A stretch of 64,000 nt of DNA, from contig CM000150.2 of assembly GCA_000004695.1 (NCBI GenBank), positions 1,952,001 through 2,016,000 on the forward strand, in the 5' to 3' direction. Origin of the DNA: Dictyostelium discoideum (Eukaryota). Numbering within the stretch: the first letter of the stretch is position 1; the number at the start of each line of letters is the position of its first letter. Below are positions 2,366 to 49,535 of this stretch, in pieces. The translations under genes and the position numbers were made by a program. The notes under the pieces were generated by a model that worked only from the letters and a program-made list of their open reading frames with translations, did not search any database and had not been told where the DNA came from.

Positions 2366-3700
2366 TTATAGTTTTATTTGGGGTAGATTTTTATCTACCT
2401 TTTGAAGTTTCTGGTTTATTTTGTCTTCTAACTGATCTTTACTTTGTTCGTTGTGTTGTTGGTCTTGTGTGTTTGTGGGGTTTTTTGATTTACTGATTTG
2501 TTTTAGAATTTCCTTGTTGAAGTTGTCTATATCTTCATCCATTTTTGTTTTTATGCTTTTTTGTCCATATTCACCCAATTTTGGTTTGACTGGTGTTTTG
2601 TTGGTCCTGTTTGTTTTGTCTTGTTGTTTGTTTTTTGGTGTGTTTAACAATTTACTTGGTGAATCGATAATTTTCGATGGTGTACCATAGGTTGGGCTGA
2701 AACTCATGATATGTTTTATTGGAGAGGAGAAGAACCATTGATTTGAAGGGATTGAAAGTGGGAATTCTATTTTTCTTATTGCATCAGTGTTTGGGCTGGT
2801 GAAGTCGAAGATATCATTTACCTCTCTAAGTTTTTCTTCCGTTGTTAGTCTCTTTGTTTCGCCGTGTTGTTTTATTGGTGTATTGTATGGAGATGGTGGT
2901 TCAATAGGTTTTTCTGATTTTGTTTTAATTTCTTGATTGTTTATCGATTGGGTATTGATCTCATTCTCTATTCTTGTTAGTTCATCTACGTTTTCTAGTG
3001 ATGCATCTATTACCTTTTGAGCTGTATCATCTAGGGCCATAAATGTTTTATCATTAGATGAGGAGGTGATTGGTGGGATAATGATTGTTCTTTTTCCTTG
3101 TTTTGGTATTTGTTCTGATGTAGATTGTGGTTGTTGTTCATCTGATTGTTTTTTATTTTTGTTTTCTTCTTGATTTTCTGGTAATGAGGTTTGATCTCTC
3201 CATCCTTTGTTGGAGTGACCAATTAATGTTAGATTGTCTAGTTCAATGATAGTATCATATTCTTCTACGACTCTTTTCACTGTTTTGATAATTAGAGTTT
3301 CGCCTTTAATTTCAGATTTAATTAGTTTACATCCTTCATTTTCTATTACCCATTCTATTTCTGTGAGTGATTTATACCAATCGAAATCCGTATACATATT
3401 TTTTGGTCTTAGAGTGGTTATAAATTGTCCTTTTAATTCTGCATCGAACATATTTACAAAATAGATTACTGTACTAATACTGTCTGTGAGAATTTTGAAT
3501 GTATTATTACTTTTGATTAAAACATCTTTTTTGTCCAAACTTTTTTCTAAATCTTTTTTTATTTTATCGTCTGGTTCGTGATTGATGTTTATGACGTATT
3601 TGAATTGTTTTTTTTTTAATTGAGTTTTATCCACAATTTCGCTTATTTTTTGTAGGCATTTGTGTTGCTTAATATTTGTGGTGTTGTTTGTGATTTTCAT
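2366..3700 (-). CDS. TRE5-A-like ORF1 protein (444 aa).
   Basis: The ORF track lists a complete 444-aa ORF. Fragments of the same N-terminal sequence recur at 45090-45135 and 50000-50160. Confidence 0.75.
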   Translation of the reverse strand: MKITNNTTNIKQHKCLQKISEIVDKTQLKKKQFKYVININHEPDDKIKKDLEKSLDKKDVLIKSNNTFKILTDSISTVIYFVNMFDAELKGQFITTLRPKNMYTDFDWYKSLTEIEWVIENEGCKLIKSEIKGETLIIKTVKRVVEEYDTIIELDNLTLIGHSNKGWRDQTSLPENQEENKNKKQSDEQQPQSTSEQIPKQGKRTIIIPPITSSSNDKTFMALDDTAQKVIDASLENVDELTRIENEINTQSINNQEIKTKSEKPIEPPSPYNTPIKQHGETKRLTTEEKLREVNDIFDFTSPNTDAIRKIEFPLSIPSNQWFFSSPIKHIMSFSPTYGTPSKIIDSPSKLLNTPKNKQQDKTNRTNKTPVKPKLGEYGQKSIKTKMDEDIDNFNKEILKQISKSKNPTNTQDQQHNEQSKDQLEDKINQKLQKVDKNLPQIKL

Positions 3701-3775: not shown

Positions 3776-3830
<55 letters not shown>

Positions 3831-3833
<3 letters not shown>

Positions 3834-4698
3834 TCTTTTTTATATGAAAAATGAAATAATCAAAAAAAGAGATTGTTGTTGTTGTTTGTTTTTTTTCGAT
3901 CTGATTATTTTTTGCTTTTTTTTGAAAATTTTGCTACGCAAAATTCTCAAAACGAAACAAATAATAAATTACAATAAAGTAAAAAGATGGCTTTTTAAGA
4001 TAGTTTATTTATTTATTTATTTGTTTTTTAAGTCTTTTTTATATGAAAAATGAAATAATCAAAAAAAGAGATTGTTGTTGTTGTTTGTTTTTTTTCGATC
4101 TGATTATTTTTTGCTTTTTTTTGAAAATTTTGCTACGCAAAATTCTCAAAACGAAACAAATAATAAATTACAATAAAGTAAAAAGATGGCTTTTTAAGAT
4201 AGTTTATTTATTTATTTATTTGTTTTTTAAGTCTTTTTTATATGAAAAATGAAATAATCAAAAAAAGAGATTGTTGTTGTTGTTTGTTTTTTTTCGATCT
4301 GATTATTTTTTGCTTTTTTTTGAAAATTTTGCTACGCAAAATTCTCAAAACGAAACAAATAATAAATTACAATAAAGTAAAAAGATGGCTTTTTAAGATA
4401 GTTTATTTATTTATTTATTTGTTTTTTAAGTCTTTTTTATATGAAAAATGAAATAATCAAAAAAAGAGATTGTTGTTGTTGTTTGTTTTTTTTCGATCTG
4501 ATTATTTTTTGCTTTTTTTTGAAAATTTTGCTACGCAAAATTCTCAAAACGAAACAAATAATAAATTACAATAAAGTAAAAAGATGGCTTTTTAAGATAG
4601 TTTATTTATTTATTTATTTGTTTTTTAAGTCTTTTTTATATGAAAAATGAAATAATCAAAAAAAGAGATTGTTGTTGTTGTTTGTTTTTTTTCGATCT
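3831..4698. repeat. Tandem array of 4.36 copies of a 199-bp unit. Copies start at 3831, 4030, 4229, 4428 and 4627. They are the 5' A-module-like repeats of the TRE5-A-like element.
   Basis: The exact 199-bp periodicity is visible directly. The ORF track shows four identical 69-aa artefact ORFs at 199-bp spacing. Confidence 0.9.
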
Positions 4699-4749
4699 TA
4701 AAAATTTTAAAAATGGATAGGAGCAAAAAAACGAAATTTCATCAAAAAT

Positions 4750-4822
4750 GCCTGGATGGCTCAGTAGGCAGAGCGAGCGGCTGTTAACCGCTAGGTCCAT
4801 GGTTCGATCCCATGTCTAGGCG
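4750..4822 (+). tRNA. tRNA-Asn (anticodon GTT).
   Basis: Cloverleaf: acceptor GCCTGGA/TCTAGGC, D-arm TGGCTCAGTAGG, anticodon stem AGCGG/CCGCT with loop CTGTTAA, T-arm CATGG TTCGATC CCATG. It is 73 nt and identical to the copy at 18455. Confidence 0.9.
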
Positions 4823-4849
4823 AATTTTTATACTTCCCTTCATATGTCA

Positions 4850-17829: not shown

Positions 17830-18454
17830 AAAAAAAAAACTGAAAAAAACAAAATCAAAATCAATTTTGATTAAAACAAAAAAAAAAAAAAAAAAAAAAA
17901 AAGATAAGAAAGGATTAAAAATTTACTTTTAATTATTTAATAGTAAAACTATGGACTTTTTTTTTTTTATTATGTATTATTATAAATAAAAAAAAATAAT
18001 AGATAAACCCTTCTTTATTTATTATATATATATATATATAAAATATATATAAATATATATTTCATATAATTCAAATACAACTTGAAATTTTCAATCATTT
18101 ATTTATTTATTTGTCACTCTTTTTCTTTTAATTCTTGTATTTTTTTTTTTTCTTTTGCTTTGTGATTAAATAATTTTAAATATTGATTTATTAATATTAT
18201 TATTATTCCAATTCAAAAAAAAAAAATTAATATTATTATTATTTCTTGATTATTTTTCCAAAAAAAAATTATATATAATTTTGCTCAAAACAATTGGATT
18301 TATCTTTTTTTTAAAAAGAACAATAAAAATCCAAGTATAATTTTTAGCTATTTTCAATTTTTAAAATAAATAATTCCTGGAAAGAGATTTTGGTAATTTG
18401 AAAAACAATGAAAAAAAGGGAGAGGAGCAAAAAAAATGAAAATTCATCAAAAAT

Positions 18455-18527
18455 GCCTGGATGGCTCAGTAGGCAGAGCGAGCGGCTGTTAACCGCTAGG
18501 TCCATGGTTCGATCCCATGTCTAGGCG
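18455..18527 (+). tRNA. tRNA-Asn (anticodon GTT), second copy.
   Basis: It is identical to the 73-nt sequence at 4750-4822. About 30 bp of upstream flank is similar in both loci. Confidence 0.9.
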
Positions 18528-18716
18528 ATATTTTTTTTAAGGTTTTTCCATTTAAAAAACAAAAAAAAAAAACCGAAAAAACAAAGAAATAAACGAGAAT
18601 TTATACATATAATAAATAAATCACTGTTATATCTTCACCGCCACATTCATTCCTCTTAATTTTACCCTTTTTTTGCTCAGTAAAGCAAGGGCTATCGTCC
18701 TATATACTTTTCAACA

Positions 18717-19925
18717 ATGGCTGATGATCACTCAACTGAATTACAGTTAAATCATACAGATAACAACACAACCAATACAAATAATACCTCCACAACCTCA
18801 ACAACAAAAAACAAAAGTGCAAAAATCGACACACCTAAAAAACAAACCCCAACAAACCAACTCTCACTAAACAAAGGACTTGATAATCAATTAGATATCA
18901 TTGCACCTCCATCAATCACAAGACCACTCTCTTTCTTAGAAAAAAACAATAACACCATCAACATTAAGTGTTACTTTAATCAACCACACATCCGTGAAGA
19001 ATTAACCTCAAAAGATGACACAAGAATTCAACAAATTCACAAAAACATTCACAAACTCTTCGAAGATATACTGTCGCCATCAGCATTCAAAATAATTGGT
19101 GCAACTGCCTTCGTAAATTGCAACGTTGATAAATTAACTTCAATAATCAACCTTCAAAACCAACTTGCACTAAATATCGACAAACTCAACTATAGATTCG
19201 ATATATCATCAAATGATTATGCAATCATTAAAACATTCATTAAAACGTACTCACCCAAACATGCAAACGATGCAATTACAAACAACCTCACTAAATTCAC
19301 CAGTTGTACATCAATTGAATCATTTACTGTCACATACTCATATGCTGTTGCGTTGAAAAGCTACATTATAACATATCATCTAATTGATCACACACACAAC
19401 ATTGTTGATCAAAAGATCGAACAACCATCTGGTATCACAAGATATATCAAAGCTGCAACACGTAGTGTCACTAAACACAAAATTCAACATGCAAAAAATG
19501 CAGATATGGCAACAACTATAAAAAATGCCATCACAAACCCAAACATGAACAAAAACAATCAACCACCAAAAAACAACATTAACACCCCACCAATCAACGA
19601 AATTGCAAATTCCAACCGCAATAATAACTCACTTCAAAATAGTGGTTCAAAAGCTATACTAAATGAATCACTTGATATTAACAATCAATCCCAAAACAAT
19701 AATGAAATTTCACACAAAAGTGATTCTTCAAATAATAATAACGGGAAAAACTCATTATCAATAAGCAATCCAACCGATCCAACAATTGTACCACAAAAAC
19801 CTCTACAATCTCAACCAAACAAACCAAGTGCACCAACTCCAAATCCAATAAATACAAGAAGAAGCAGCAATGCCCTGACTACACAACCAGTCAATACTGG
19901 TGCTGCCAAACCTAGTAAGGTATGA
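18717..19925 (+). CDS. TRE3 ORF1 (402 aa). Its stop overlaps the ORF2 start in ATGA.
   Basis: The ORF is complete. ...AKPSKV* ends at 19925 and the ORF2 ATG is at 19922. Confidence 0.8.
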   Translation: MADDHSTELQLNHTDNNTTNTNNTSTTSTTKNKSAKIDTPKKQTPTNQLSLNKGLDNQLDIIAPPSITRPLSFLEKNNNTINIKCYFNQPHIREELTSKDDTRIQQIHKNIHKLFEDILSPSAFKIIGATAFVNCNVDKLTSIINLQNQLALNIDKLNYRFDISSNDYAIIKTFIKTYSPKHANDAITNNLTKFTSCTSIESFTVTYSYAVALKSYIITYHLIDHTHNIVDQKIEQPSGITRYIKAATRSVTKHKIQHAKNADMATTIKNAITNPNMNKNNQPPKNNINTPPINEIANSNRNNNSLQNSGSKAILNESLDINNQSQNNNEISHKSDSSNNNNGKNSLSISNPTDPTIVPQKPLQSQPNKPSAPTPNPINTRRSSNALTTQPVNTGAAKPSKV

Positions 19926-22900
19926 GCTCAAAAATCAACTTTATAACATGGAATTGTAGAGGATTCACTGAAAACCCAAACAATCAACACAATTCCTACC
20001 AAAAAGCTGTTGACACACTACAACTACTTATATCAAAACTTCCACCTCGTCCAACAATCTCAATACTCACTGAACTCAATTCATCACCATTACAACTTAA
20101 ACATGATTTTCCCGATCACATCATCTCTGTCACCAAACGAGGAAATGGTGTAATCATCATTAACCATAACCCAAACACACTCAAACTCAAACACATATCA
20201 ACAATTGATGGTAGAGCTATTTTAGCAGACGTTATATTTCCAAATCAATTACCAATTGGTATTCTTGGAATTTACGCACCAGCATCAAATAATACCATCA
20301 AAAAGAATTCATATGCAACTTCACTACAAACACTTCTCCACAACCACTCAACAAACCCAATACCAAACCAATCCCAACATGTATCTATTATCGCAGGAGA
20401 TTTCAACTGTATCCACGACGACAATTCACTATTAGACGATATTATCCAATCCTACACATACCAACACCATCTAATTGATCAAGGTGAATTTAAAAACACT
20501 CCAACTCATACACATGGCAACAGATTAGATAGAATATATACTCAATACAATAGAATAGACCCTGAAAATATATATACACAAGTCCACCAAATTCCATCTT
20601 CATTATCAGATCATAATCCAATATCAACAACAATTTCTTCACCTTTTCAAATAAATAAACATAAGAAAAGATGGATATTATACCTGGTACTGCAAATGAC
20701 CATGAAGCAATCAATATTATCAATCATTTAATAACTAATCACAATAACACATCAATCAATCAATTTACAAACTGGTCAAAAGTAAAATCAAAAATTATTA
20801 AAACTCTAAAAAACTATCAATATAACAAAGACAAACAAACTCAACGTGCAAAACAAATACTATTAGAAAAAGCAGCAAAATTCAAACATCTTGAAGAACA
20901 ATGCATCGCTGAATACAATATTATATGTAACAAAAACAAATTACATCAAAACCACACAAACATATTAAAAAAACATATAAATGGAGAAATACCTAGCAAG
21001 TATCTATCAGCAATACTAAACAAAAGATCAAAAGATGCAAAAATTGAATCAATCCAATATGGTAACATAATTACATCCGACCCCGACCAAATTGAAAATG
21101 CGTTTGTTGAATTCTACACAAATCTATATAGCTTACAAATATGTTGTCCAATTACTCACCAGCTCATGCTAAACACATGGCCCATCATAAAAAATGAATA
21201 TTGGAATGGTTTAGACTCACCATTTATACAAGATGAAGTTGAAGCTGCAATTAAAACCTGTAACCCCAACAAATCACCCGGTCCAGATGGCGTTACAAAT
21301 GCATTCTACATTAATCATTTAAACCAAGTTAAACCAATTCTCACTACATTATTCAACGATATACTAGAAAATCCTCACCACATCACAACAGAATTCACAG
21401 AAGGTCTTATACACACAATATACAAGAAAGGCAACCCCTTACTCATATCAAATCGTCGTCCCATTACACTTCTAAACACTGATTACAAGATCCTCTCAAA
21501 AGTAATCAATGCACGTCTTCTGAGAATACTTCCTTTCATCATCAACAACAACCAAACTGGTTTCGTACCCCACAGATTCATCATAGACAACATCATCAAC
21601 ATCAATGAATTAATCAACTACCTCAAATCTAAAAACCTCCCTGGTATCATCACACTATTTGACTTCTTTAAAGCATTTGATTCTATCTCTCACGATAGCA
21701 TTAAAAGAACATTAATTCATATTGGTATACCAATAAAATTAATAAATTTAATCCACAAGCTATTATCTGACTCACAAGCAAAAATTTCAATTAATGGTAA
21801 AACGACCAGAAAATTCGATATTAAAAGAGGTGTAAAACAAGGTGACCCAATCTCAGCCACTTTATTTGTAATTGTAATTGAAATATTAGCAAGAACAATA
21901 AATGCAGACAATTCAATAATTGGATTACCAATTTCACCCAATCCACAAATTAAAATCAAATTTACCCAATTTGCAGACGACTCTACAACATACAACATCA
22001 ACTACGAACAACAACAACAATCAATCAAACATTTCGATAATTTCTGCGCTTCAACATCATCATCTTTAAATTTTGACAAAAGTGCAATAATAGAAATCAA
22101 CCCCCACAAAATCACTGATAAACACATAATAAACAACATTCCACAATCAAAAAGAATTCCAATAACCAAAAAAGATCAATCAGAAAGAGTTCTTGGCTAT
22201 TTCTTTAATCATAATGGTTTACATAGGAAATTTCCAGAAACAATGAAAACACTGATTAAATCATTAGTGCTATGGAAAACTAGTGGCACAACATTAAAAA
22301 CAAAAACAACCATCATAAACACCTACTCACTATCACCAATAACATATTTATCATACCTTGAAGAATTTACAAAAGATGAAGAAATTCAAATTAATAAATT
22401 AATCTCATGGTTTATGAATTCTCCCGCAAATTCTGAATCACCAACTCTCGATACCAATTCCATTGAAAACAACACATCAACCATCCATTCACGTGCAAAA
22501 ATACCTTTGATGTGTTATGATAGATCATTAAAACCATTAAAAGAAGGAGGTTGGGGTATGTGGAATATCCAATTACGACAAGTTGCTCAAAAGATTTGGA
22601 TATACAACAGATTTTTACAAATGCATAAATCTGCAAACAATTCAATATACATGATAAGTTGGATGGATCAAATCATCAACAAATCAATCTCTTCTCCATA
22701 CCTTATAAAAATAAAAAAAGAATGGGAAAACTATGCAACTCAAATTGGACATCTAAAAGATAAAGTTCAAATCCTACAACCAATATTAACAAAAAACCAA
22801 CCCTCTCAAACATTAAACACAAATAATATTTCACTACCACCAACACTCAAAGAAATCTACTCGACAATACTAAACAATCACCAATGCAAATCAAAAGACT

Positions 22901-23748
22901 ATATTGGCAAGAAATATTCAGATCTACTTCTTACTTCGCACCAACAATCAATACAACTATTATGGAAATACACATACGACCAACTTTTTGTCAAAATTCA
23001 AAAATTAAAAGATCCAAAAGGCCGAGATACAATGCAAAGATTCCATGCTAGATGTCTTCCGATTAATCATCTACACAACAAAGTTTGCCCCATTTGCAAC
23101 AATGAAATGAATAATGATCCCTATGGTCATTTGTTTTTCAATTGTCAGCACACAATCAACTTCATTAACCACGACAAATTAAAATATTTTATATATAAAA
23201 ATTGCAATGGAAACAAAAACTGGTCACTAACAAAAAACCAAACAACAAAATTATACACACTCATTTATAAACCACAAACAAACAACAAAGCATTTAAACC
23301 AGATCCAACTATCAATATTAATTTTCATTTTGCAGAAAACGCACAATATAAAAAATACAGGTTCAACTGGAATTATATAAACACAAATCTTGATCTAGTC
23401 AGAACACATGCATATTGGAACATAATCTCATTAGTTATTCACCAAATATGGATATGGTTATGCAAATCATTATTTGACATCAATATAACTCAATCAATTG
23501 ACAATTGGAACAACCAAATAAACAACACAACACTAGATTATGATATATTAAAATCAAAATGGCACAAGCTAATAAGATTGGAATATTCAAGAAGGTTATC
23601 AAACTTTAACCAATTCTCAATTAAAAACAACCTCACAAAAACTCAAAAAGAAACCCAATGGTCCGAAACCATCAAAAAATTTAAAAAAGAATGGAGCATA
23701 AACACTAATGAACCAATTCCAACAATTACACCACCAATTAATTATTAA
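19922..23748 (+). CDS. TRE3 ORF2: AP endonuclease + reverse transcriptase + C-terminal Cys/His domain. It is interrupted by a single 1-nt frameshift near 20681.
   Basis: Two ORFs (19922..20731 and 20671..23748) overlap in different frames. The sister copy reads attatCacctgg where this copy reads attatacctgg, giving continuous KHKKRWILSPGTANDHEA. Confidence 0.75.
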
Positions 23749-23892
23749 TTACCTAATCTAAAATAACATACTATTTTAAATTCACAAAAACTAAAAAACC
23801 TAAAATAAATAAATAAAAATAACATACTAGTTGTATACTACAATAGTTTATTTATATCAAAAAAAAAAAAAAAAAAGTTTTTCCATTTGTCG

Positions 23893-23907
23893 CATGTTCG
23901 ATTCTCT
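23893..23907 (+). promoter_or_regulatory. Ex-B-box-like motif (ATGTTCGATTCTC) displaced from tRNA-Asn by the TRE3 insertion.
   Basis: It lies immediately after the right TSD. It is an analogous motif at analogous spacing to the other tRNA-Asn locus. Confidence 0.45.
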
Positions 23908-25388: not shown

Positions 25389-26925
25389 TGTCAACAGCAC
25401 CAATTAAACATGAAGGTTTCCTCACTAAAGAAGGTGGTGGTTTCAAAAGTTGGAAAAAGAGATGGTTCATTCTCAAAGGTGGTGATTTAAGTTATTATAA
25501 AACAAAAGGTGTAAGTATAATTAATTAATTTATAAATTTTTTTTTTTTTAAAATAATAGAAAAAAAAAATCTAAAATATATTTTTTTATTTTATTTTTTA
25601 TTTTTATTTTATTTTAGGAACTTGTACCATTAGGAGTTATTCATTTAAATACATCAGGTCATATTAAAAATTCTGATCGTAAGAAAAGAGTTAATGGATT
25701 TGAAGTACAAACACCATCACGTACATATTTCTTATGTTCAGAGACAGAGGAAGAACGTGCAAAATGGATAGAGATATTAATTAATGAAAGAGAATTATTA
25801 TTGAATGGTGGTAAACAACCAAAGAAATCGGAAAAGGTAGGAGTTGCAGATTTTGAATTATTGAATTTAGTTGGTAAAGGTAGTTTTGGTAAAGTTATTC
25901 AAGTTAGAAAGAAAGATACTGGTGAAGTGTATGCAATGAAAGTTTTATCAAAGAAACATATCGTAGAGCATAACGAAGTCGAACATACATTGAGTGAGCG
26001 TAATATTCTTCAAAAGATCAATCACCCATTTTTGGTTAATCTCAACTACAGTTTTCAAACAGAGGATAAGCTTTACTTTATCTTGGATTATGTTAATGGT
26101 GGTGAGTTATTCTATCATCTTCAAAAGGACAAAAAGTTTACAGAGGATCGTGTCCGTTATTATGGCGCAGAGATCGTATTGGCATTGGAACATTTACATT
26201 TGTCGGGTGTCATCTATAGAGATTTGAAACCAGAGAATTTACTACTCACCAACGAGGGTCACATTTGCATGACCGATTTCGGTCTTTGCAAAGAGGGTCT
26301 ATTGACACCAACCGACAAAACTGGTACTTTCTGTGGTACTCCTGAATATTTAGCACCCGAAGTACTTCAAGGCAATGGTTATGGTAAACAAGTGGATTGG
26401 TGGAGTTTTGGTTCTCTCCTCTATGAAATGCTCACTGGTTTACCACCATTCTACAATCAAGACGTCCAAGAGATGTATCGTAAGATCATGATGGAGAAAT
26501 TATCTTTCCCACATTTCATTTCTCCAGATGCTCGTTCCCTCTTGGAACAACTCTTGGAAAGAGATCCTGAAAAAAGACTTGCCGATCCAAATCTTATTAA
26601 AAGACATCCTTTCTTCCGTTCCATCGATTGGGAACAATTATTCCAAAAGAATATTCCACCACCATTCATTCCAAATGTTAAAGGTTCTGCTGATACCTCT
26701 CAAATTGATCCAGTTTTCACTGATGAAGCTCCTTCTTTAACTATGGCTGGTGAATGTGCTTTAAATCCGCAACAACAAAAAGATTTTGAAGGTAATTATT
26801 AATTTAAAAAAAAAAAAAAAAAAAAAATCAAATCAAATTATCTTATAATATTAATATATTCTTTTTTTATTTATTTTTTCAATTTAGGATTTACATATGT
26901 CGCTGAATCTGAACATTTAAGATAA
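25388..26925 (+). CDS. pkbA: AKT/PKB-type AGC kinase with N-terminal PH domain (444 aa). Three exons: 25388..25510, 25618..26791, 26888..26925.
   Basis: The PH domain is MSTAPIKHEGFLTKEGGGFKSWKKRWFILKGG. The kinase carries GKGSFGKV...HRDLKPEN...DFGLCKE...GTPEYLAPE. The last exon gives the hydrophobic motif FEGFTYVAESEHLR*. Introns are GTAAGT...AG with consistent phases. Confidence 0.85.
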
Positions 26926-39526: not shown

Positions 39527-41860
39527 TTAATTAATAATTTTTGAAATATAAATACAATATCTTTTAACTCTTTGACCATTATTCCAAAGTTTATTAAAAT
39601 AAGAATAACCATAATCTTCAGATAATTGAATTAAGTAAGTTTCTTTAACTGGTTTATAAATTTTTAGTAATTTTTTTGATTTTGTAAGGATATCTATAAT
39701 TTGATCACTATAATCTTTATCATCAGTTACAATTGTGAGTGTACCATCTTTTTTTAAACATCTATTAATTTCAATGAGGAATAACTCATTGATAAGACGT
39801 TCAGCACCAGACCAAACTGGTGGATTTGGATAATTGATATAAACTTCATTCAAGATATTATCTGGTATGATCTCTTTTAGCGAACCATGAGCATCACCAC
39901 CCACTATATAAAGGTTATCAATTGCTTCAAGTATCATTTTACTCCAAATTTGAAAGATACGATCGTAACGAATTTCCAAAGAGATCCAATCTGCATCTAA
40001 ATCTTGACCGGCTCTTTCAGTCACCCAATGACCGTGACCTGAACAAATCTCCATTTTAAGTGATCTATTACTATTGAAATTGCTACCACCCTTTTTATAA
40101 GAATTGAATAAACCATTGAATGACGATAATGTAGAGTCTGGTGAGGTTGCAACTGTGACAGGTTTACATTGTTGATCGATACTACGATTGACATTATTCT
40201 TAAAAGTATTCTTTGAGAAATAAATACGATTAAAACTTTCCATATTATGATACTTAATTTTTGAACGTGATTCTGTCATTTTTGAAAGATAATTTCTAAC
40301 ACGATCAGATTCTTCATTGATCTCCTGTTTGTTAATTCTTTCAAACAATGAAGAGGAGATCTTATTCTTTTCTGAAAGTTTACCTTTATTTTTATGAGTG
40401 GTTTGAGTTGATCTTGGTGCTTTCGATAGAATGTCATCAGTGATACCCAATGCTTTAACCGAGGATTTAATATCACCAGCTAATAACGATGCCAATGATA
40501 GACGTGAGAAACAAATGGGTGATATTTGACCTTGCATTCTTTCATAAACTTTACCTAGTAAATCCCAAATCTCTTGTACCATTAAATGATGAGAATAGAT
40601 TTTTATCAAATATTCAATGGTGGTTGAATCGGGATAGATCTCATTGGCTTTCATTAATTGTATTAATGATTTAGTGATTTCAATATCACCAGATCTAATA
40701 CAACCACGAAATATGGAATTAAAAGTACGAATATTTGGTTTGGTTTCAATCATACCCTTAATTGTAGCAAATGATTCATCCATATCAATTTCACAAAGTG
40801 CTTTCACATAGATTGTATAAACCACTTCATTGGCATTACCATCTTTAACTGCATCTTGAAAAACTTCTTTCACTTTTTTATACTCTTGACATCTTACACA
40901 TGCATTCAACATAACACCATAGGTAATATGATCTGGTTTTGCTCCAATCTTTTTTAAATAATTATATGCTTTAACCAATTGAACATAATCTTTTGCTTCT
41001 GCACATGATGACATTTGTGATGTAATTTTATTAATAACTGCTCTATTATTTCTAACAATTGATTCTTTTTTTGGTTCTTCTTCTTTTTTTACTTCTTTTT
41101 CTTTTTCTTTTTCTTCTTTTTTATCATTTAATTTTTTATTTTTCTTTTGATTTACTTTTTTTTCTTCATTAATTTCAGTTGTTTTTTCTGTTTCTGTTGT
41201 TTCTGTTGTTGTTGTTGTTGCTGTAGCTGTAGCTATTGTTGGTTCATTTGGCGTTGTTGTGGTTGGTGGTGGTGTTGTTTTTGGTTTCTTTTCTTTTGGT
41301 TTCTTTTCTTTTGGTTTTTCATTTGTTAATTTAATTTTTTTATTTGATTCTTCTTGTGTTTTAGTTGGTGGTGTTGGTGTTGGTATTGGTGTTGGTGTTG
41401 GAATTACTTTTTTAAAATCATAAAAATCAACAATAACTTTTTTATCACCAATGGTTTTACCATTAACTAAATTTTTAATCTATATAAATAAATAAAAATA
41501 AAATAAAATTTGACATTAAATTAGAAATCTTTTTTTTTATTTATATTTTTTTTTACATATGTGCCAACTTACTATTGATAATTGTGATAAATTTTGAGAT
41601 GATAAAAATGAAATAGTTGTATCAGCATCAACTTTACCAATTAAATCTGGTGGTAAAGTAATTGGAATTGTAATATTTATAGAAGGATTTTGAATAATTT
41701 TCTTTAAATTTTCAATAATTTCATTTTTGCTAATTGATTTTGGAATATTTTTAACAATTAATTTTGTAATTGAAACTCCTCCACCGCCTCCTCCTAAAAT
41801 ACCAATTGATGTTGGTGCTGTTGATCCTAATGAATTACCAAATTTTCTTTTTAAATCCAT
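39527..41860 (-). CDS. Multidomain protein: N-terminal RRM-like exon (41573..41860), K/E/T/P-rich linker, PPR-type helical repeats, C-terminal TrmB-like (tRNA m7G) methyltransferase domain. Main exon 39527..~41480. The exon1/exon2 join is 1 nt out of phase as read.
   Basis: The first-exon ORF ends at a GTAAGT donor (..LSQLSI|gtaagt). The minus frame runs continuously from ~41480 through MSSCAEAKDY...PPR (ITYGVMLNACVRC) to VYINYPNPPVW (TrmB FPDPW-like). Confidence 0.55.
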
Positions 41861-42225
41861 ATTTTGAAAATAAAAATAAAAAACGATGGTTATTGTTTTT
41901 GATTAATCGTTTTTAAATGAATTTAAAAATAAAAAAAAAAAAAAAAATGAAAAAACGAAAAATTGGATTTTTATTTTTTTTTTATTTTTTTTATTTTTAA
42001 TTTTTTTATTTTAATTTTACATTTTTCATAATCATTTGTAAGTAATAGTTATTATACTTTTTGATTTTTTACCCCCTTAATGATGACTAATTAATTTTAT
42101 TTAATTTTATTTTTATTTTAAATTTGTATTTACATTTTTTTTTTTTTTTTAATTTAATTTTTAATTTTTTAATTTTTTTTTTTTTTTTAATTTTTTTTTT
42201 AATTTTTGGATTCTTTTTTTCCGCA

Positions 42226-42284
<59 letters not shown>

Positions 42285-42315
42285 CTTTATTCGATTACAT
42301 AGAAATTGATTAACA

Positions 42316-42923
42316 ATGCCACCAAAACCTACATACGTTAGTGGGGGTAGTGTTACTCAAACAGGTAGAAGTAAATGGAGATTATCATATATTCCTGAAT
42401 TTATTTGGGGTATTTTAAATCAAATAACTTTTTTGTAAGTATTTATATATTTATATATATTTTCATTGTTATTATTCTTTTATTAACATATACATATATT
42501 TTTAGCTTCTCAACTTTAATAGGTGTAGGTTAAATTTATTTAGGTTTTTTTTTTTTTTTTTTTTTTTTCTTTCAAAATTAAGAGATTATATATATTAATT
42601 ATAATTAAATTAAATATATTTAGGGTACAGTTGAACCTAGAAGACGTCCAAATAACCAAGGTGGAGGTAGAAGATTAGCAGGATTTGATGGTAATGGTAA
42701 TGTAACAGGTGGAAGTGGTGTAGGTGGTAGTGGTCCAAGTAAAGGTCCAGATAATGGTTCAAATAATAGAAGAGGTGACATGAAAAATATTTGTATGTAT
42801 TTCCTTTTTTTTTTTTTTTTTTTTTTCTATTATTTTTTTTTTATTGGGTATTAATTGATCATTGTTTTAAATTTAATTTTAGTGGCATGTAATTCAGCTT
42901 CAGGATCTTGAGGTCCGAAATAG
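42316..42923 (+). CDS. selK: Selenoprotein K (SelK) homolog, 115 aa with an in-frame TGA (Sec) at 42909-42911 (...GS-U-GPK*). Four exons: 42316..42434, 42506..42524, 42624..42792, 42883..42923.
   Basis: The sequence SKWRLSYIPEFIWGILNQITFLF matches human SELK SPWRLSLITDFFWGIAEFVVLFF. It has a Gly/Pro-rich middle. The C-terminal MACNSASGS-TGA-GPK matches human PMAGG-U-GR. Confidence 0.7.
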
Positions 42924-43147
42924 GTTAAACTAAATTATTTTTATAGTTTTTTTTTTTTTTTTTTTTTTTAATTTTTTATTTTCCTTTTTTCTTTTTTAGA
43001 ATAATATTAAACATTTTATTTTACTTTCAAGTATTTTGGAAAAAAAAGAAAAAAAAGAAAAAAAAGAAAAGGAGAAAAAAAGAAAAAAAAAAGAAAAAAA
43101 ACATATTTATAATTTGGTTATTTAACCATTTAGAGGAATATTGTGAA

Positions 43148-43196
43148 GAATCAATGATTAGTTTTTAAAACTGTAATGATTTGTTAAATTAAAACC
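43148..43196 (+). promoter_or_regulatory. Candidate SECIS element for selK (ATGA ... AAAA ... TGAT), ~230 nt after the stop.
   Basis: The core tcaATGAttagtttttAAAActgtaaTGATttg contains the SECIS quartet plus the apical AA motif at the right spacing. No folding was computed. Confidence 0.35.
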
Positions 43197-43559
43197 ATTT
43201 TATTGGCAATTTAACATTGAATAGATCATTTTCATCAGTAACCAATATTCTTTAAAAAAAAAAAAAAAAACAAGATCAAAATAAAAACAAAATTGTATAT
43301 AGTAATATCATAATAATAATAATAAATTTTTAAATTCCTACTTTGCATCATAATTTTCTTTATTTTTATTTTAAATATTAACTTAAATATTGGATTTTTT
43401 TTAGTTATAATCGTTTTAAAAATGGGTAATTATTCAATATCCTTCCAATTTAATAAATTGCCCAATTCAATAGAATCGATAAAGACAATTATTGATTTCT
43501 ATTTTAAATTTTTTTCATAATTTTAGTTTTTTTCAATTTAAAAATTCATTTTCAAAAAT

Positions 43560-43631
43560 GGCTCCTTAGCATAGTGGTATTGCGCTTCCCTAGTAAGGAA
43601 GAGGTCATGAGTTCGATCCTCATAGGAGCCT
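43560..43631 (+). tRNA. tRNA-Thr (anticodon AGT), including a U discriminator.
   Basis: The acceptor is GGCTCCT/AGGAGCC. The anticodon stem CTTCC/GGAAG carries the loop CTAGTAA. The T-arm is ATGAG TTCGATC CTCAT. It is identical to the copy at 45247. Confidence 0.85.
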
Positions 43632-43672
43632 TTTTTTGAATAATCTTACAAAACCTAGGGATTTATTTTATT

Positions 43673-43727
43673 AATTACCTAATCTAAACATACCATCAAT
43701 ACATGGATAATCAATCTTGTTAATCCA

Positions 43728-43793
<66 letters not shown>
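43673..43793 (+). mobile_element. TRE3 3' terminal (C-module-like) fragment with poly(A), 42 bp downstream of tRNA-Thr.
   Basis: It starts TTACCTAATCTAAA..., as does the 3' UTR of the TRE3 copies at 23749 and 49387. It ends in A57. Confidence 0.5.
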
Positions 43794-43797
<4 letters not shown>

Positions 43798-44460
43798 AAA
43801 TTGAGGAAATCAATAACATGACCAGATGGTTCTTATTCTCCTCAGTTAAGAATACATATACAGAAGAGAGAAAATACAAAACTATGATGAAAATAGACAG
43901 AGCATATGCAGATTGGAAAGAAGGAGGCATAAAATTATGGGATATAGAACTAAGACATATAGCATTCAAAATCTGGTACATGAACAGGCTACTCCATAAC
44001 AACTACAACAACAACAACAATACCTTACAAGAATGGTACATGGAGCAATTAAGTAGAAAAAAAGCCCACACTTCAACCCTCAACGATATGTGCAGACACT
44101 GGGGTGTATTCAGAGTCAAATTTTACCAAAACCATCCAAAGATAAATGAACTTCCAGACTGTATAAGAAACGACAATGACGAACCACTAAAACTGAAAGA
44201 AATTTACGAACTCATGATCAAAGACAGACACCCAACACCAAGAAGAACACTGATGAAAGCAAATCAGAGCCAAAGTTCGAACAAAAGGTCATAGAAACAG
44301 AATTACTAAATCTCATCGAAACTGAAAAATTCATCACACTAAAGAAAATCAAACACGACGAAGCAATACTAAAAAACACCAATCAAGATCTTCACAAATA
44401 CAAATTCAACAAAGCCTGGCAAACCCCAGCAGCTCCGAACCCCCTTCCAATTTAAGTAGT

Positions 44461-44536
<76 letters not shown>
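43794..44536 (+). mobile_element. 5'-truncated TRE3-like element of a different subfamily: the ORF2 C-terminal 158 aa + 3' UTR + long poly(A).
   Basis: ORF 43818..44294 reads KEGGIKLWDIELRHIAFKIWYMNRLL. The full TRE3 ORF2 reads KEGGWGMWNIQLRQVAQKIWIYNRFL. Confidence 0.65.
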
Positions 44537-45246: not shown

Positions 45247-45318
45247 GGCTCCTTAGCATAGTGGTATTGCGCTTCCCTAGTAAGGAAGAGGTCATGAGTT
45301 CGATCCTCATAGGAGCCT
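45247..45318 (+). tRNA. tRNA-Thr (anticodon AGT), second copy.
   Basis: It is identical to 43560-43631. The upstream TTCAAAAATGGCTCC context is shared. Confidence 0.85.
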
Positions 45319-45364
45319 TTTTTTGGTTTTGGAGAACCATACAAAACCAAATTCAAAAATGAAA

Positions 45365-48300
45365 CAAAAAAAACCTTAACAAAACAAAGAAATAAACGAG
45401 AATTTATACATATAATAAATAAATCACTGTTATATCTTCACCGCCACATTCATTCCTCTTAATTTTACCCTATTTTTGCTCAATAAAGCAAGGGCTATCG
45501 TCCTATATACTTTTCAACAATGGCTGATGATCACTCAACTGAATTACAGTTAAATCATACAGATAACAACACAACCAATACAAATAATACCTCCACAACC
45601 TCAACAACAAAAAACAAAAGTGCAAAAATCGACACACCTAAAAAACAAACCCCAACAAACCAATTCTCACTTAACAAAGGACTTGATAAAGTGTTACTTT
45701 AATCAACCATACATCCGTGAAGAATTAACCTCTAAAGATGACACAAGAATTCAACAAATTCACAAAAACATTCACAAACTCTTCGAAGATATACTGTCGC
45801 CATCAGCATTAAAAATAATTGGTGCAACTGCCTTCGTAAATTGCAACGTTGATAAATTAACTTCAATAATCAACCTTCAAAACCAACTTGAACTAAATAT
45901 CGACAAACTCAACTATAGATTCGAAATATCATCAAATGATTATGCAATCATTAAAACATTCATTCAAACGTACTCACCCAAACATGAAAACGATGCAATT
46001 ATAAACAACCTCACCAAATTCACCAGTTGTACATCAATTGAATCATTTACTGTCACATACTCATATGCTGTTGCGTTTAAAAGCTACATTATAACATCAT
46101 CTAATTGATCACACACAACATTGTTGATCAAAAGATCCAACAACCATCTGGTATCACAAGATATATCAAAGCTGCAACACGTAGTGTCACTTAACACAAA
46201 ATTCAACATGCAAAAAATGCAGATATGGCAACAACTATAAAAAATGCTCTCACAACCCAAATATTAACAAAAACAATCAACCACCAAAAAACAACATTAA
46301 CACCCCACCAATCAACGAAATTGCAAATTCCAATCGCAATAATAACCCACTTCAAAATAGTGGTTCAAAAGCTACACTAAATGAACCACTTGAAACCAAC
46401 AATCAATCCCAAAACAATAATGAAATTTCACACAAAAGTGATTCTTCAAATAATAATAACGGGAAAAACTCATTATCAATGAGCAATCCAACCGATCCAA
46501 CAATTGTACCACAAAAACCTCTACAATCCCAACCAAACAAACCAAGTGCACCAACTCCAAATACAATAAATACAAGAAGAAGCAGCAATGCCTTGACTAC
46601 ACAACCAGTCAATACTGGTGCAGCCAAACCTAAACACACTCAACAATTGATGGTAGAGCTATTTTAGCAGACATTATATTTCCAAATCAATTACCAATTG
46701 GTATTCTTGGAATTTACGCACCAGCATCAAATAATACCATCAAAAAGAATTCATATGCAACTTCACTACAAACACTTCTCCACAACCACTCAACAAACCC
46801 AATACCAAACCAATCCCAACATGTATCTATTATCGCAGGAGATTTCAACTGTATCCACAACGACAATTCACTATTAGATGATATTATCCAATCCTACACA
46901 TACCAACACCATCTAATTGATCAAGGTGAATTTAAAAACCTCATACACATGGCAACAGATTAGATAGAATATATACTCAATACAATAGAATAGACCCTGT
47001 ATTCAGCGATGCATTGTTCTTCAAGATGTTTGAATTTTGCTGCTTTTTCTAATAGTATTTGTTTTGCAAGTTGAGTTTGTTTGTCTTTGTTATATTGATA
47101 GTTTTTTAGAGTTTTAATAATTTTTGATTTTACTTTTGACCAATTTGTAAATTGATTGATTGATGTGTTATTGTGATTATTTATTAAATGATTGATAATA
47201 TTGATCGCTTCATGGTCATTTGCAGTACCAGGTGATAATATCCATCTTTTCTTATGTTTATTTATTTGAAAAGGTGAAGAAATTGTTGTTGATATTGGAT
47301 TATGATCTGATAATGAAGATGGAATTTGATGGACTTGTGTATATATGTAACAAAAACAAATTACATCAAAACCACACAAACATATTAAAAAAACATATAA
47401 ATGGAGAAATACCTAGCAAGTATCTATCAGCAATACTAAACAAAAGATCAAAAGATGCAAAAATTGAATCAGTCCAATATGATAACATCATTACATCCGA
47501 TCCCGACCAAATTGAAAATGCGTTTGTTGAATTCTACACAAATCTATATAGCTTACAAATATGTTGTCCAATTACTCACCAGCTCATGCTAAACACATGG
47601 CCCATCATAAAAAAGAATATTGGATGGTTTAGACTCACCATTTATACAAGATGAAGTTGAAGCTGCAATTAAAGACCAAGTTAAACCCATTCTCACTACA
47701 TTATTCAACGATATACTAGAAAATCCTCACCACATCACAACAGAATTCACCGAAGGTCTTATACACACAATATACTAGAAAGGCAACCCCTTACTCATAT
47801 CAAATCGTCGTCCCATTACACTTCTAAACACTGATTACAAAATCCTCTCAAAAGTAATCAATGCACGTCTTCTGAGAATACTTCCTTTCATCATCAACAA
47901 CAACCAAACTGGTTTCGTACCCCACTGACTCATCATAGACAACATCATCAACATCAATGAATTAATCAACTACCTCTAATCTAAAAACCTCCCTGGTATC
48001 ATCACACTATTTGACTTCTTTAAAGCATTTGATTCTATCTCTCACGATAGTATTAAAAGAACATTAATTCATATTGGTATACCAATAAAATTAATAAATT
48101 TAATCCACAAGCTATTATCTGACTCATTAGCAAAAATTTCAATTAATGGTAAAACGACCAGAAAATTCGATATTATAAGAGGTGTAAAACAAGGTGACCC
48201 AATCTCAGCCACTTTATTTGTAATTGTAATTGAAATATTAGCAAGAACAATAAATGCAGACAATACAATAATTGGATTACCAATTTCACCCAATCCACAA

Positions 48301-49535
48301 ATTAAAATCAAATTTACCCAATTTGCAGACGACTCTACAACATACAACATCAACTACGAACAACAACAATCAATCAAACATTTCGATAATTTCTTCAACA
48401 TCATCATTAAATTTTGACAAAAGTGCAATAATAGAAATCGACCCCCACAAAATCACTGATAAACACATAATAAACAACATTCCATAATCAAAAAGAATAC
48501 CAATAACCAAAAAAGATCAATCAGAAAGAGTCCTTGGCTATTTCTTTAATCATAATGGTTTACATAGGAAATTACCAGAAACAATGAAAACACTGATCAA
48601 ATCATTAGTACTATGGTAAAACTAGTGGCACAACATTAAAAACAAAAACAACCATCATAAACACCTACTCACTATCACCAATAACATATTTATCATACCT
48701 TGAAGAATTTACAAAAGATGAAGAAATTCAAATTAATAAATTAATCTCATGGTTTATGAATTCTCCCGCAAATTCTGAATCACCAACTCTCAATACCAAT
48801 TCCATTGAAAACAACACATCAACCACGACAAATTAAAATATTTTATATATAAAAATTGCAATGGAAACAAAAACTGGTCACTAACAAAAAACCAAACAAC
48901 AAAATTAAACACACTCATTTATAAACCACAAACAAACAACAAAGCATTTAAACCAGATCCAACAATCAATATTAATTTTAATTTGCAGAAAACGCACAAT
49001 ATAAAATATACAGGTTCAACTGGAATTATATAAAAACAAATCTTGATCTAGTCAGAACACATGCATATTGGAACATAATCTCATTAGTTATTCACCAAAT
49101 ATGGATATGGTTATGCAAATCATTATTTGACATCAATATAACTCAATCAATTGACAATTGGAACAACCAAATAAACAACACAACACTAGATTATGATATA
49201 TTAAAATCAAAATGGCACAAGCTAATAAGATTGGAATATTCAAGAACATTATCAAACTTTAACCAATACTCAATTAAAAACAACCTCACAAAAACTCAAA
49301 AAGAAACCCAATGGTCCGAAACCATCAAAAAATTTAAAAAAGAATAGAGCATAAACACAAATGAACCAATTCCAACAATTACACCACCAATTAATTATTA
49401 ATTACCTAATCTAAAATAACATACCATATTAAATTCACAAAAACTAAAAAACCTAAAATAAATAAATAAAAATAACATACTAATTGTATACTACAATAGT
49501 TTATTTATATCAAAAAAAAAAAAAAAAAAAAAAAA
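45365..49535 (+). mobile_element. Degenerate TRE3 copy of the same subfamily as 18554-23876. It has multiple frameshifts/stops, a ~275-bp deletion, a 344-bp internal inversion (47000-47343) and a ~0.5-kb 3' deletion. It lies ~50 bp downstream of tRNA-Thr.
   Basis: It is collinear and highly similar to copy 1 from AACAAAGAAATAAACGAGAATTTATACATA to the poly(A). The ORF track shows ORF1/ORF2 broken into pieces, including a minus-strand piece (46960..47379). Confidence 0.8.

Follow-up and report, generated by a model that had tools for sequence, protein, structure and literature searches.

The selK locus of Dictyostelium discoideum: an in-frame UGA that is probably read as selenocysteine through a type II SECIS element in the 3' untranslated region

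The window analysed here comprises 64,000 nt of Dictyostelium discoideum DNA (GenBank assembly GCA_000004695.1, contig CM000150.2, positions 1,952,001 to 2,016,000 of the forward strand; all coordinates below are those of the window) and carries on its plus strand a gene for selenoprotein K (SelK), whose reading frame is interrupted by an in-frame UGA. In all likelihood, this locus is the selK gene of D. discoideum, already published in 2007 and present in RefSeq, and its UGA is recoded as selenocysteine (Sec) via a type II selenocysteine insertion sequence (SECIS) element in the 3' untranslated region (UTR). The coding sequence consists of four segments with GT/AG at every border, which begin with the ATG at 42316 and sum to 348 nt in frame; the gene model of the initial annotation, with four exons including a 19-nt micro-exon, is accurate to the base. 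Exon 1 (42316-42434, plus strand, as are all parts of selK) extends from the ATG to codon 40, encodes MPPKPTYVSGGSVTQTGRSKWRLSYIPEFIWGILNQITF(F), ends in phase 2 and is followed by a GTAAGT donor. Its sequence is 90-99% identical in seven orthologous loci, compared with 32-92% for intron 1. These loci (assemblies GCA_0548590xx-0548593xx and GCA_036169595.1) stem from D. discoideum strains (L006, L007), D. cf. discoideum (L001, L005), D. citrinum (L004), D. dimigraforme (L002) and D. firmibasis (L003), and together with the window they constitute the eight genomes, from five taxa, that are compared below. Exon 2 (42506-42524) is the micro-exon, C TTC TCA ACT TTA ATA GGT, which is flanked by AG and GT and encodes (F)FSTLIG, the residues of the conserved FF.TL motif of SelK; omission of these 19 nt destroys the frame. 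Exon 3 (42624-42792), supported by the frame and by alignment, encodes the Gly/Asn/Arg-rich stretch GTVEPRRRP...RRGDMKNI(L). The coding part of exon 4 (42883-42923), supported by the frame, the eight genomes and the published protein end, encodes ...ACNSASGS and continues with TGA (Sec), GGT CCG AAA and the TAG stop at 42921-42923. In genomic alignments to the window, which has approximately 20-25% G+C and long poly-A/T tracts, the exons are 80-100% identical and the introns 32-56% identical in the three distant species. Here, the micro-exon stands out as an island of 89-100% identity whose AG and GT flanks are kept in 8/8 genomes, and the three substitutions found in it (TTC to TTT, ACT to ACG and GGT to GGC) are all synonymous third-position changes in the predicted frame, which together provide good comparative evidence that the micro-exon is real.

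Translation of the four joined segments, with the in-frame UGA taken as Sec, yields a SelK/SelG protein of 115 residues that ends in ...ACNSASGS-U-GPK-stop. The joined frame reads MPPKPTYVSGGSVTQTGRSKWRLSYIPEFIWGILNQITFFFSTLIGGTVEPRRRPNNQGGGRRLAGFDGNGNVTGGSGVGGSGPSKGPDNGSNNRRGDMKNILACNSASGS, a stop symbol for TGA 42909-42911, GPK and a last stop symbol for TAG 42921-42923. The single Sec is residue 112 of 115 and the fourth from the end, in the context GS-U-GPK, and its assignment to the UGA at 42909-42911 is based on the translation, conservation in the eight genomes and the published SelK alignment. When Sec is replaced by Cys, the translation fits the Pfam family SelK_SelG (PF10961) over profile positions 1-85 of 86 at 65.9 bits (E 5e-18; cut-off 23.3 bits), and the orthologs carry precomputed PF10961 assignments; the family membership that had been assigned from the two termini is borne out. 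The full product is identical, if noise from optical character recognition is allowed for, to the D. discoideum SelK row XP_646897.1 in supplement 2 of Lobanov et al. (2007, Genome Biol 8:R198, PMC2375036), including the end ILACNSASGS-U-GPK and the following stop. Since the published protein has the same sequence and the same end, the gene is already known, and the GS-TGA-GPK-stop C-terminus read from the letters of the window in the initial annotation, with TGA followed by GGT CCG AAA TAG, agrees with published SelK. In the 2007 paper, SelK is one of five selenoproteins listed for D. discoideum, together with SPS2, Sep15, MSP and a deiodinase homologue. In the protein, a short N-terminal part precedes a single hydrophobic segment (approximately residues 24-47) and a Gly/Asn/Arg/Ser-rich tail with 17 Gly in 68 residues. 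Its best 19-residue Kyte-Doolittle window, residues 29-47 (FIWGILNQITFFFSTLIGG), has a mean of 1.34, which is hydrophobic but below the usual threshold of 1.6. Mammalian SELENOK and the PF10961 family share with it the N-terminal block WRLS...F.WGI...FF.TL and the hydrophobic segment, a Gly/Pro/Arg-rich low-complexity tail, and a single Sec beside Gly at the extreme C-terminus. The D. discoideum protein differs from mammalian SELENOK in its length (115 versus 94 residues), in a tail that is Gly/Asn/Ser-rich rather than Pro-rich, and in the context of Sec, which is the fourth-last residue in GS-U-GPK as opposed to the GG-U-G(R) of SELENOK. Compared with the published D. discoideum SelK (XP_646897.1, PMC2375036), the locus represents the same gene with an identical protein and SECIS traits that match the text description, without substantive difference.

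The candidate SECIS element lies on the plus strand in the 3' UTR, with its core 264 nt 3' of the UGA and 252 nt past the TAG stop. The complete SECIS-bearing stem, defined by RNAalifold on the eight genomes, by pair counts and by a conserved 3' UTR island, spans approximately 121 nt (43133-43253). At its foot, RNAalifold places a basal helix (43133-43142/43244-43253), which is followed by helix I in two segments, 43143-43147/43231-43235 and 43153-43159/43224-43230, supported by RNAalifold and pair counts; with the basal helix included, helix I is thus extended to approximately 22 bp in three segments. Above it, an internal loop has a 5' side of 16 nt, which is able to form a small hairpin of its own (43160-43172). 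The 5' half of the core, with the k-turn quartet, is UGUA plus AUGA at 43172-43179, of which the UGUA prefix is Dictyostelium-specific, and its 3' half is the GA at 43219-43220; both are invariant in the eight genomes. In the consensus fold, the AUGA (43176-43179) and the GA are unpaired and mutually opposite between helix I and helix II, and the GA would be expected to partner G43178 and A43179 in tandem sheared G·A pairs. The consensus fold continues above the core with two U·U mismatches (U43180·U43218 and U43181·U43217) and with helix II, which comprises 9 bp (43182-43190/43208-43216) and is also obtained by constrained folding. These 9 standard pairs and two mismatches give a spacing of 11 nt between AUGA and the unpaired AAAA at 43191-43194, which reads UAAA in one strain, with AAA retained. 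A mini-stem CCA/UGG of 3 bp (43195-43197/43204-43206) with a 6-nt loop and a bulged C43207 forms the apex, which is of type II. The folding energy of this SECIS form is -10.2 to -12.4 kcal/mol. In the description of Dictyostelium SECIS elements in PMC2375036, the AUGA is preceded by UGUA and followed by a U·U mismatch, the AAA is unpaired and the apex is of type II; the element in the window shows all of these genus-specific traits when compared with the text of that paper. With canonical type II SECIS elements (RF00031) it shares the AUGA...AA...GA core, the 11 nt from AUGA to the unpaired adenosines, the 3' UTR location, a helix II and mini-stem that put the adenosines in a bulge, and a helix I under the internal loop. 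It differs from them in its extreme AU-richness, the UGUA prefix and tandem U·U mismatches, the unusually long 5' side of the internal loop and the three-segment helix I, and the Rfam model misses it.

Conservation supports this architecture. The 3' UTR is mostly divergent, but a block at approximately 43100-43250 retains 82-98% identity, also in the three distant species. The octamer TGTAATGA has a single occurrence in the 3' UTR (43172-43179), with an equivalent site 231-260 nt after the UGA in 8/8 genomes; on its own the octamer is uninformative, as it has 5 matches in the window against 5.2 expected. RNAalifold on the conserved block of the eight genomes returns the SECIS shape with the core unpaired, and 97.9% of the alignment cells are standard pairs, a share that falls to 34-53% if each partner is shifted by 1-3 columns. 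Compensatory changes are found at pair 43187/43211 in helix II (A-U in three genomes, U-A in three) and at pair 43144/43234 in helix I (U-A in seven genomes, C-G in one), and several further changes are one-sided but compatible, e.g. U-A to U·G. The support for the fold from covariation is modest. A SECIS descriptor (ATGA, 10-13 nt, AA, at least 7 consecutive helix II pairs, GA, and a helix I of at least 6 bp) has one match on both strands of the window (128 kb), and this match is the selK element. The match lies on the right strand and within 300 nt 3' of the UGA, whereas approximately 0.005 matches would be expected by chance in a given 500 nt of one strand that follow a SelK-type UGA. Taken together, the position, the conservation with covariation and the published genus-specific signature make the SECIS element convincing.

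A different geometry within the same 3' UTR had been proposed in the initial annotation, in which a core of ATGA, AAAA and TGAT was placed in an element that ends by 43200. Its claim of a SECIS element in the 3' UTR stands, whereas the core does not, as the true core lies approximately 22 nt further downstream, and the true element runs approximately 50 nt beyond 43200, to about 43253. Within 42316-43200 the triple can only be ATGA 43154-43157, AAAA 43167-43170 and TGAT 43177-43180, the last of which would supply the 3' (U)GA(U). These motifs are present in the right order and the single-sequence minimum free energy hairpin (43148-43182) covers them, but when they are kept unpaired no pairs form (0.0 kcal/mol), and the gap of 6 nt between AAAA and UGAU makes a helix II of at least 9 bp impossible. 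The minimum free energy hairpin itself pairs the AAAA and engages the second AUGA in Watson-Crick pairs, reaches -4.7 kcal/mol against the -10.2 to -12.4 kcal/mol of the SECIS form, and is without compensatory change, with pair 43151/43179 broken in 3/8 genomes and pair 43152/43178 in 1/8. Moreover, the proposed core fails the SECIS descriptor and is without the UGUA prefix that is reported for all Dictyostelium SECIS elements (PMC2375036). In the consensus fold, as well as by pair counts and constrained folding, the first ATGA (43154-43157) is instead part of the helix I strand AAUGAUU (43153-43159), which pairs with GAUCAUU (43224-43230), the proposed AAAA belongs to the 5' half of the internal loop, and the proposed TGAT overlaps the true core. 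The core as originally drawn is therefore considered extremely improbable.

Several observations weigh against recoding of the UGA through this element or limit the evidence for it. Among them, the ortholog proteins are close (81-99% identity) and the covariation amounts to two pairs, and it is because of this closeness that the support from covariation is modest; control (a) of the pair counting was suggestive only (4/500). The fold alone is not significant, because dinucleotide shuffles give 1.4 descriptor matches per window (128 kb) against the one observed. The codon pattern TGA-GGN-CCN-AAA-TAG is kept in 8/8 genomes with GGT/GGC and CCG/CCA as the sole changes, a conservation that is compatible with translation through the UGA; the 20 nt 3' of the TAG are likewise well conserved, and for this reason conservation of the GPK codons is weak evidence on its own. 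Rfam cmscan searches of 41500-44500 and of 43125-43255 (131 nt) at E<=10 found no match to the SECIS model (SECIS_1, RF00031). Furthermore, SelK is the sole D. discoideum selenoprotein that was undetected by 75Se labelling (PMC2375036), so that Sec insertion in SelK itself is a prediction. The missing Rfam match is not decisive, because generic models have weak sensitivity for Dictyostelium SECIS elements: the test set of the SECISearch3 paper contained 4 D. purpureum SECIS elements, and its Table 2 lists one D. purpureum selenoprotein with a SECIS found by Infernal at a score of at least 15.

The missing 75Se label, the missing Rfam match and the conservation 3' of the TAG, together with the NCBI annotation of eight recent assemblies, in which the protein ends at the UGA, could be accommodated if the UGA were a plain stop, the product a Sec-less SelK homologue of 111 residues and the 3' UTR island another regulatory RNA, for example one for localisation or stability. 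We consider this very unlikely. In the published alignment (PMC2375036), the position of the UGA corresponds to Sec in SelK from animals and algae (GGUG(R)/GSUG), the island bears the full SECIS signature including the genus-specific traits, and both substitutions in the three codons after the UGA are synonymous. In addition, D. discoideum possesses the Sec machinery, with a Sec tRNA and four 75Se-labelled selenoproteins (PMC2375036), and truncation by automatic callers is uninformative because these callers cannot read UGA as Sec.

Besides the tRNA-Thr, the same Rfam scans returned nothing but sub-threshold snoRNA and miRNA noise. The noise includes a weak match to SNORD78 (17.3 bits, E 0.49), which aligns UGUAAUGAU ... 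with CUGA-like ends and could be taken to indicate that 43171-43224 is a box C/D snoRNA-like gene and not a SECIS element. The score is, however, far under the gathering score of 38, the SNORD78 model is without base pairs, and the match is driven by the k-turn consensus that both classes share (UGAUGA/CUGA versus AUGA/GA). The location, in the 3' UTR of a selenoprotein gene with an in-frame UGA, also speaks against a snoRNA, and a long covarying helix II together with helix I would be unexpected for a C/D snoRNA. The probability of this alternative is close to negligible.

As expected from the initial annotation, automatic callers truncate the gene at the UGA. NCBI KAM9941611.1 ('hypothetical protein') is identical to the 111-residue product, and a database search returned three Dictyostelium proteins, 81-97% identical, which all end exactly in ...ASGS, cut at the UGA. 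In the eight recent NCBI assemblies (D. discoideum, D. cf. discoideum, D. citrinum, D. dimigraforme and D. firmibasis), the selK product has 110-112 residues, ends at the UGA and is named "hypothetical protein"; UniRef labels the truncated D. firmibasis product Selenoprotein K. In these assemblies, the mis-annotation of this selenoprotein is systematic. A search with D. discoideum SPS2 (from the 2007 supplement) retrieved 123 selenide-water-dikinase fragments, with none from Dictyostelium among the best 120 of the 123. Generic SECIS models miss such AU-rich elements, and in AT-rich amoebozoan genomes the mis-annotation of selenoproteins will continue until SECIS models tuned to the genus are applied. 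The practical value of the present analysis lies in the correction of annotation and its discovery value is small, as SelK and its SECIS element were published in 2007. To our knowledge, the alignment of eight genomes nevertheless gives the first, if modest, covariation support for the selK SECIS element, and it fixes the position of the core.

From the established pathway of Sec decoding in eukaryotes, the following course of expression can be proposed. The selK gene would be transcribed on the plus strand and spliced from its four exons into the message for a 115-residue protein, and the UGUA-AUGA at 43172-43179 and the GA at 43219-43220 would form the k-turn-like core of the type II SECIS element. 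SBP2 would bind the AUGA/GA quartet and recruit eEFSec and Sec-tRNA(Sec) for the ribosome that has reached the UGA, 264 nt upstream of the core; read-through would then add U-G-P-K, and failure would give the 111-residue form. Mammalian SELENOK is a membrane protein of the endoplasmic reticulum (ER) that takes part in ER-associated degradation and DHHC6-dependent palmitoylation, and Dictyostelium SelK may likewise act at the ER membrane in one of these processes.

The conserved 3' UTR island exceeds a minimal SECIS element, as it includes the three-segment helix I, the 16-nt 5' loop with its possible hairpin and an invariant upstream hairpin. The latter, UGGUU-AUUU-AACCA at 43115-43128 on the plus strand, is recognised by its conservation, lies just 5' of the SECIS stem and is possibly a part of the element. 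It falls within the 30 nt that are best conserved in the entire 3' UTR (95-98% in the distant species), and its stem is invariant in the eight genomes and hence holds no covariation information; one change occurs in the loop, in one of the two D. cf. discoideum genomes (L005). It is conceivable, though rather unlikely, that these additional conserved parts (the hairpin, the extended helix I and the 5' loop) form a Dictyostelium-specific accessory module that tunes Sec insertion. If so, the module might offset the very weak AU-rich helices, or it might instead restrict SelK expression and in this way explain the missing 75Se label.

Upstream of selK and divergent from it, a minus-strand gene at 39527-41860 encodes a protein with PPR repeats and a Methyltransf_4 domain, and its start is approximately 455 bp from the selK ATG; the pair of genes is syntenic in every Dictyostelium locus that was retrieved. 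Downstream, a tRNA-Thr(AGU) gene (43560-43631, 65.5 bits) follows on the plus strand, approximately 300 nt beyond the SECIS stem, and it is one of two tRNA-Thr(AGU) genes in the window, the other being at 45247-45318. The window also contains two tRNA-Asn(GUU) genes. Several of these tRNA genes adjoin repetitive sequences. A non-long terminal repeat (non-LTR) retrotransposon lies in the region 18454-23900 on the plus strand and contains three open reading frames (ORFs), of which the first (18717-19925) has no Pfam match, the second (19922-20731) encodes an Exo_endo_phos (APE) endonuclease and the third (20671-23748) an RVT_1 reverse transcriptase. Homology between the copies of this element starts approximately 22 nt past the tRNA-Asn(GUU) gene at 18454-18528. 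The second copy (45351-49529), 96-98% identical, starts approximately 33 nt past the tRNA-Thr(AGU) gene at 45247-45318 and is rearranged by deletions and an inverted segment (46998-47346); its long ORFs are gone and it is probably degenerate. The retroelement resembles a tRNA-gene-targeted element of the TRE3 type, and both it and the array described next would fit the tRNA-targeted TRE elements of Dictyostelium. A tandem array at 3805-4698 (199-bp unit, 4.5 copies, 99% identity) ends 51 bp upstream of the tRNA-Asn(GUU) gene at 4749-4823 and adjoins a minus-strand ORF of 444 residues (2366-3700) without a Pfam match; the array resembles the A-modules with which TRE5-A, an element that inserts approximately 50 bp upstream of tRNA genes, begins in repeated form at its 5' end. 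The tRNA-Asn gene is duplicated together with its flanks (4709-4829 versus 18413-18535, 95%). Finally, an ORF at 25801-26802, unrelated to selK, encodes a full protein kinase domain with Pkinase_C (AGC-type) at 253 bits.

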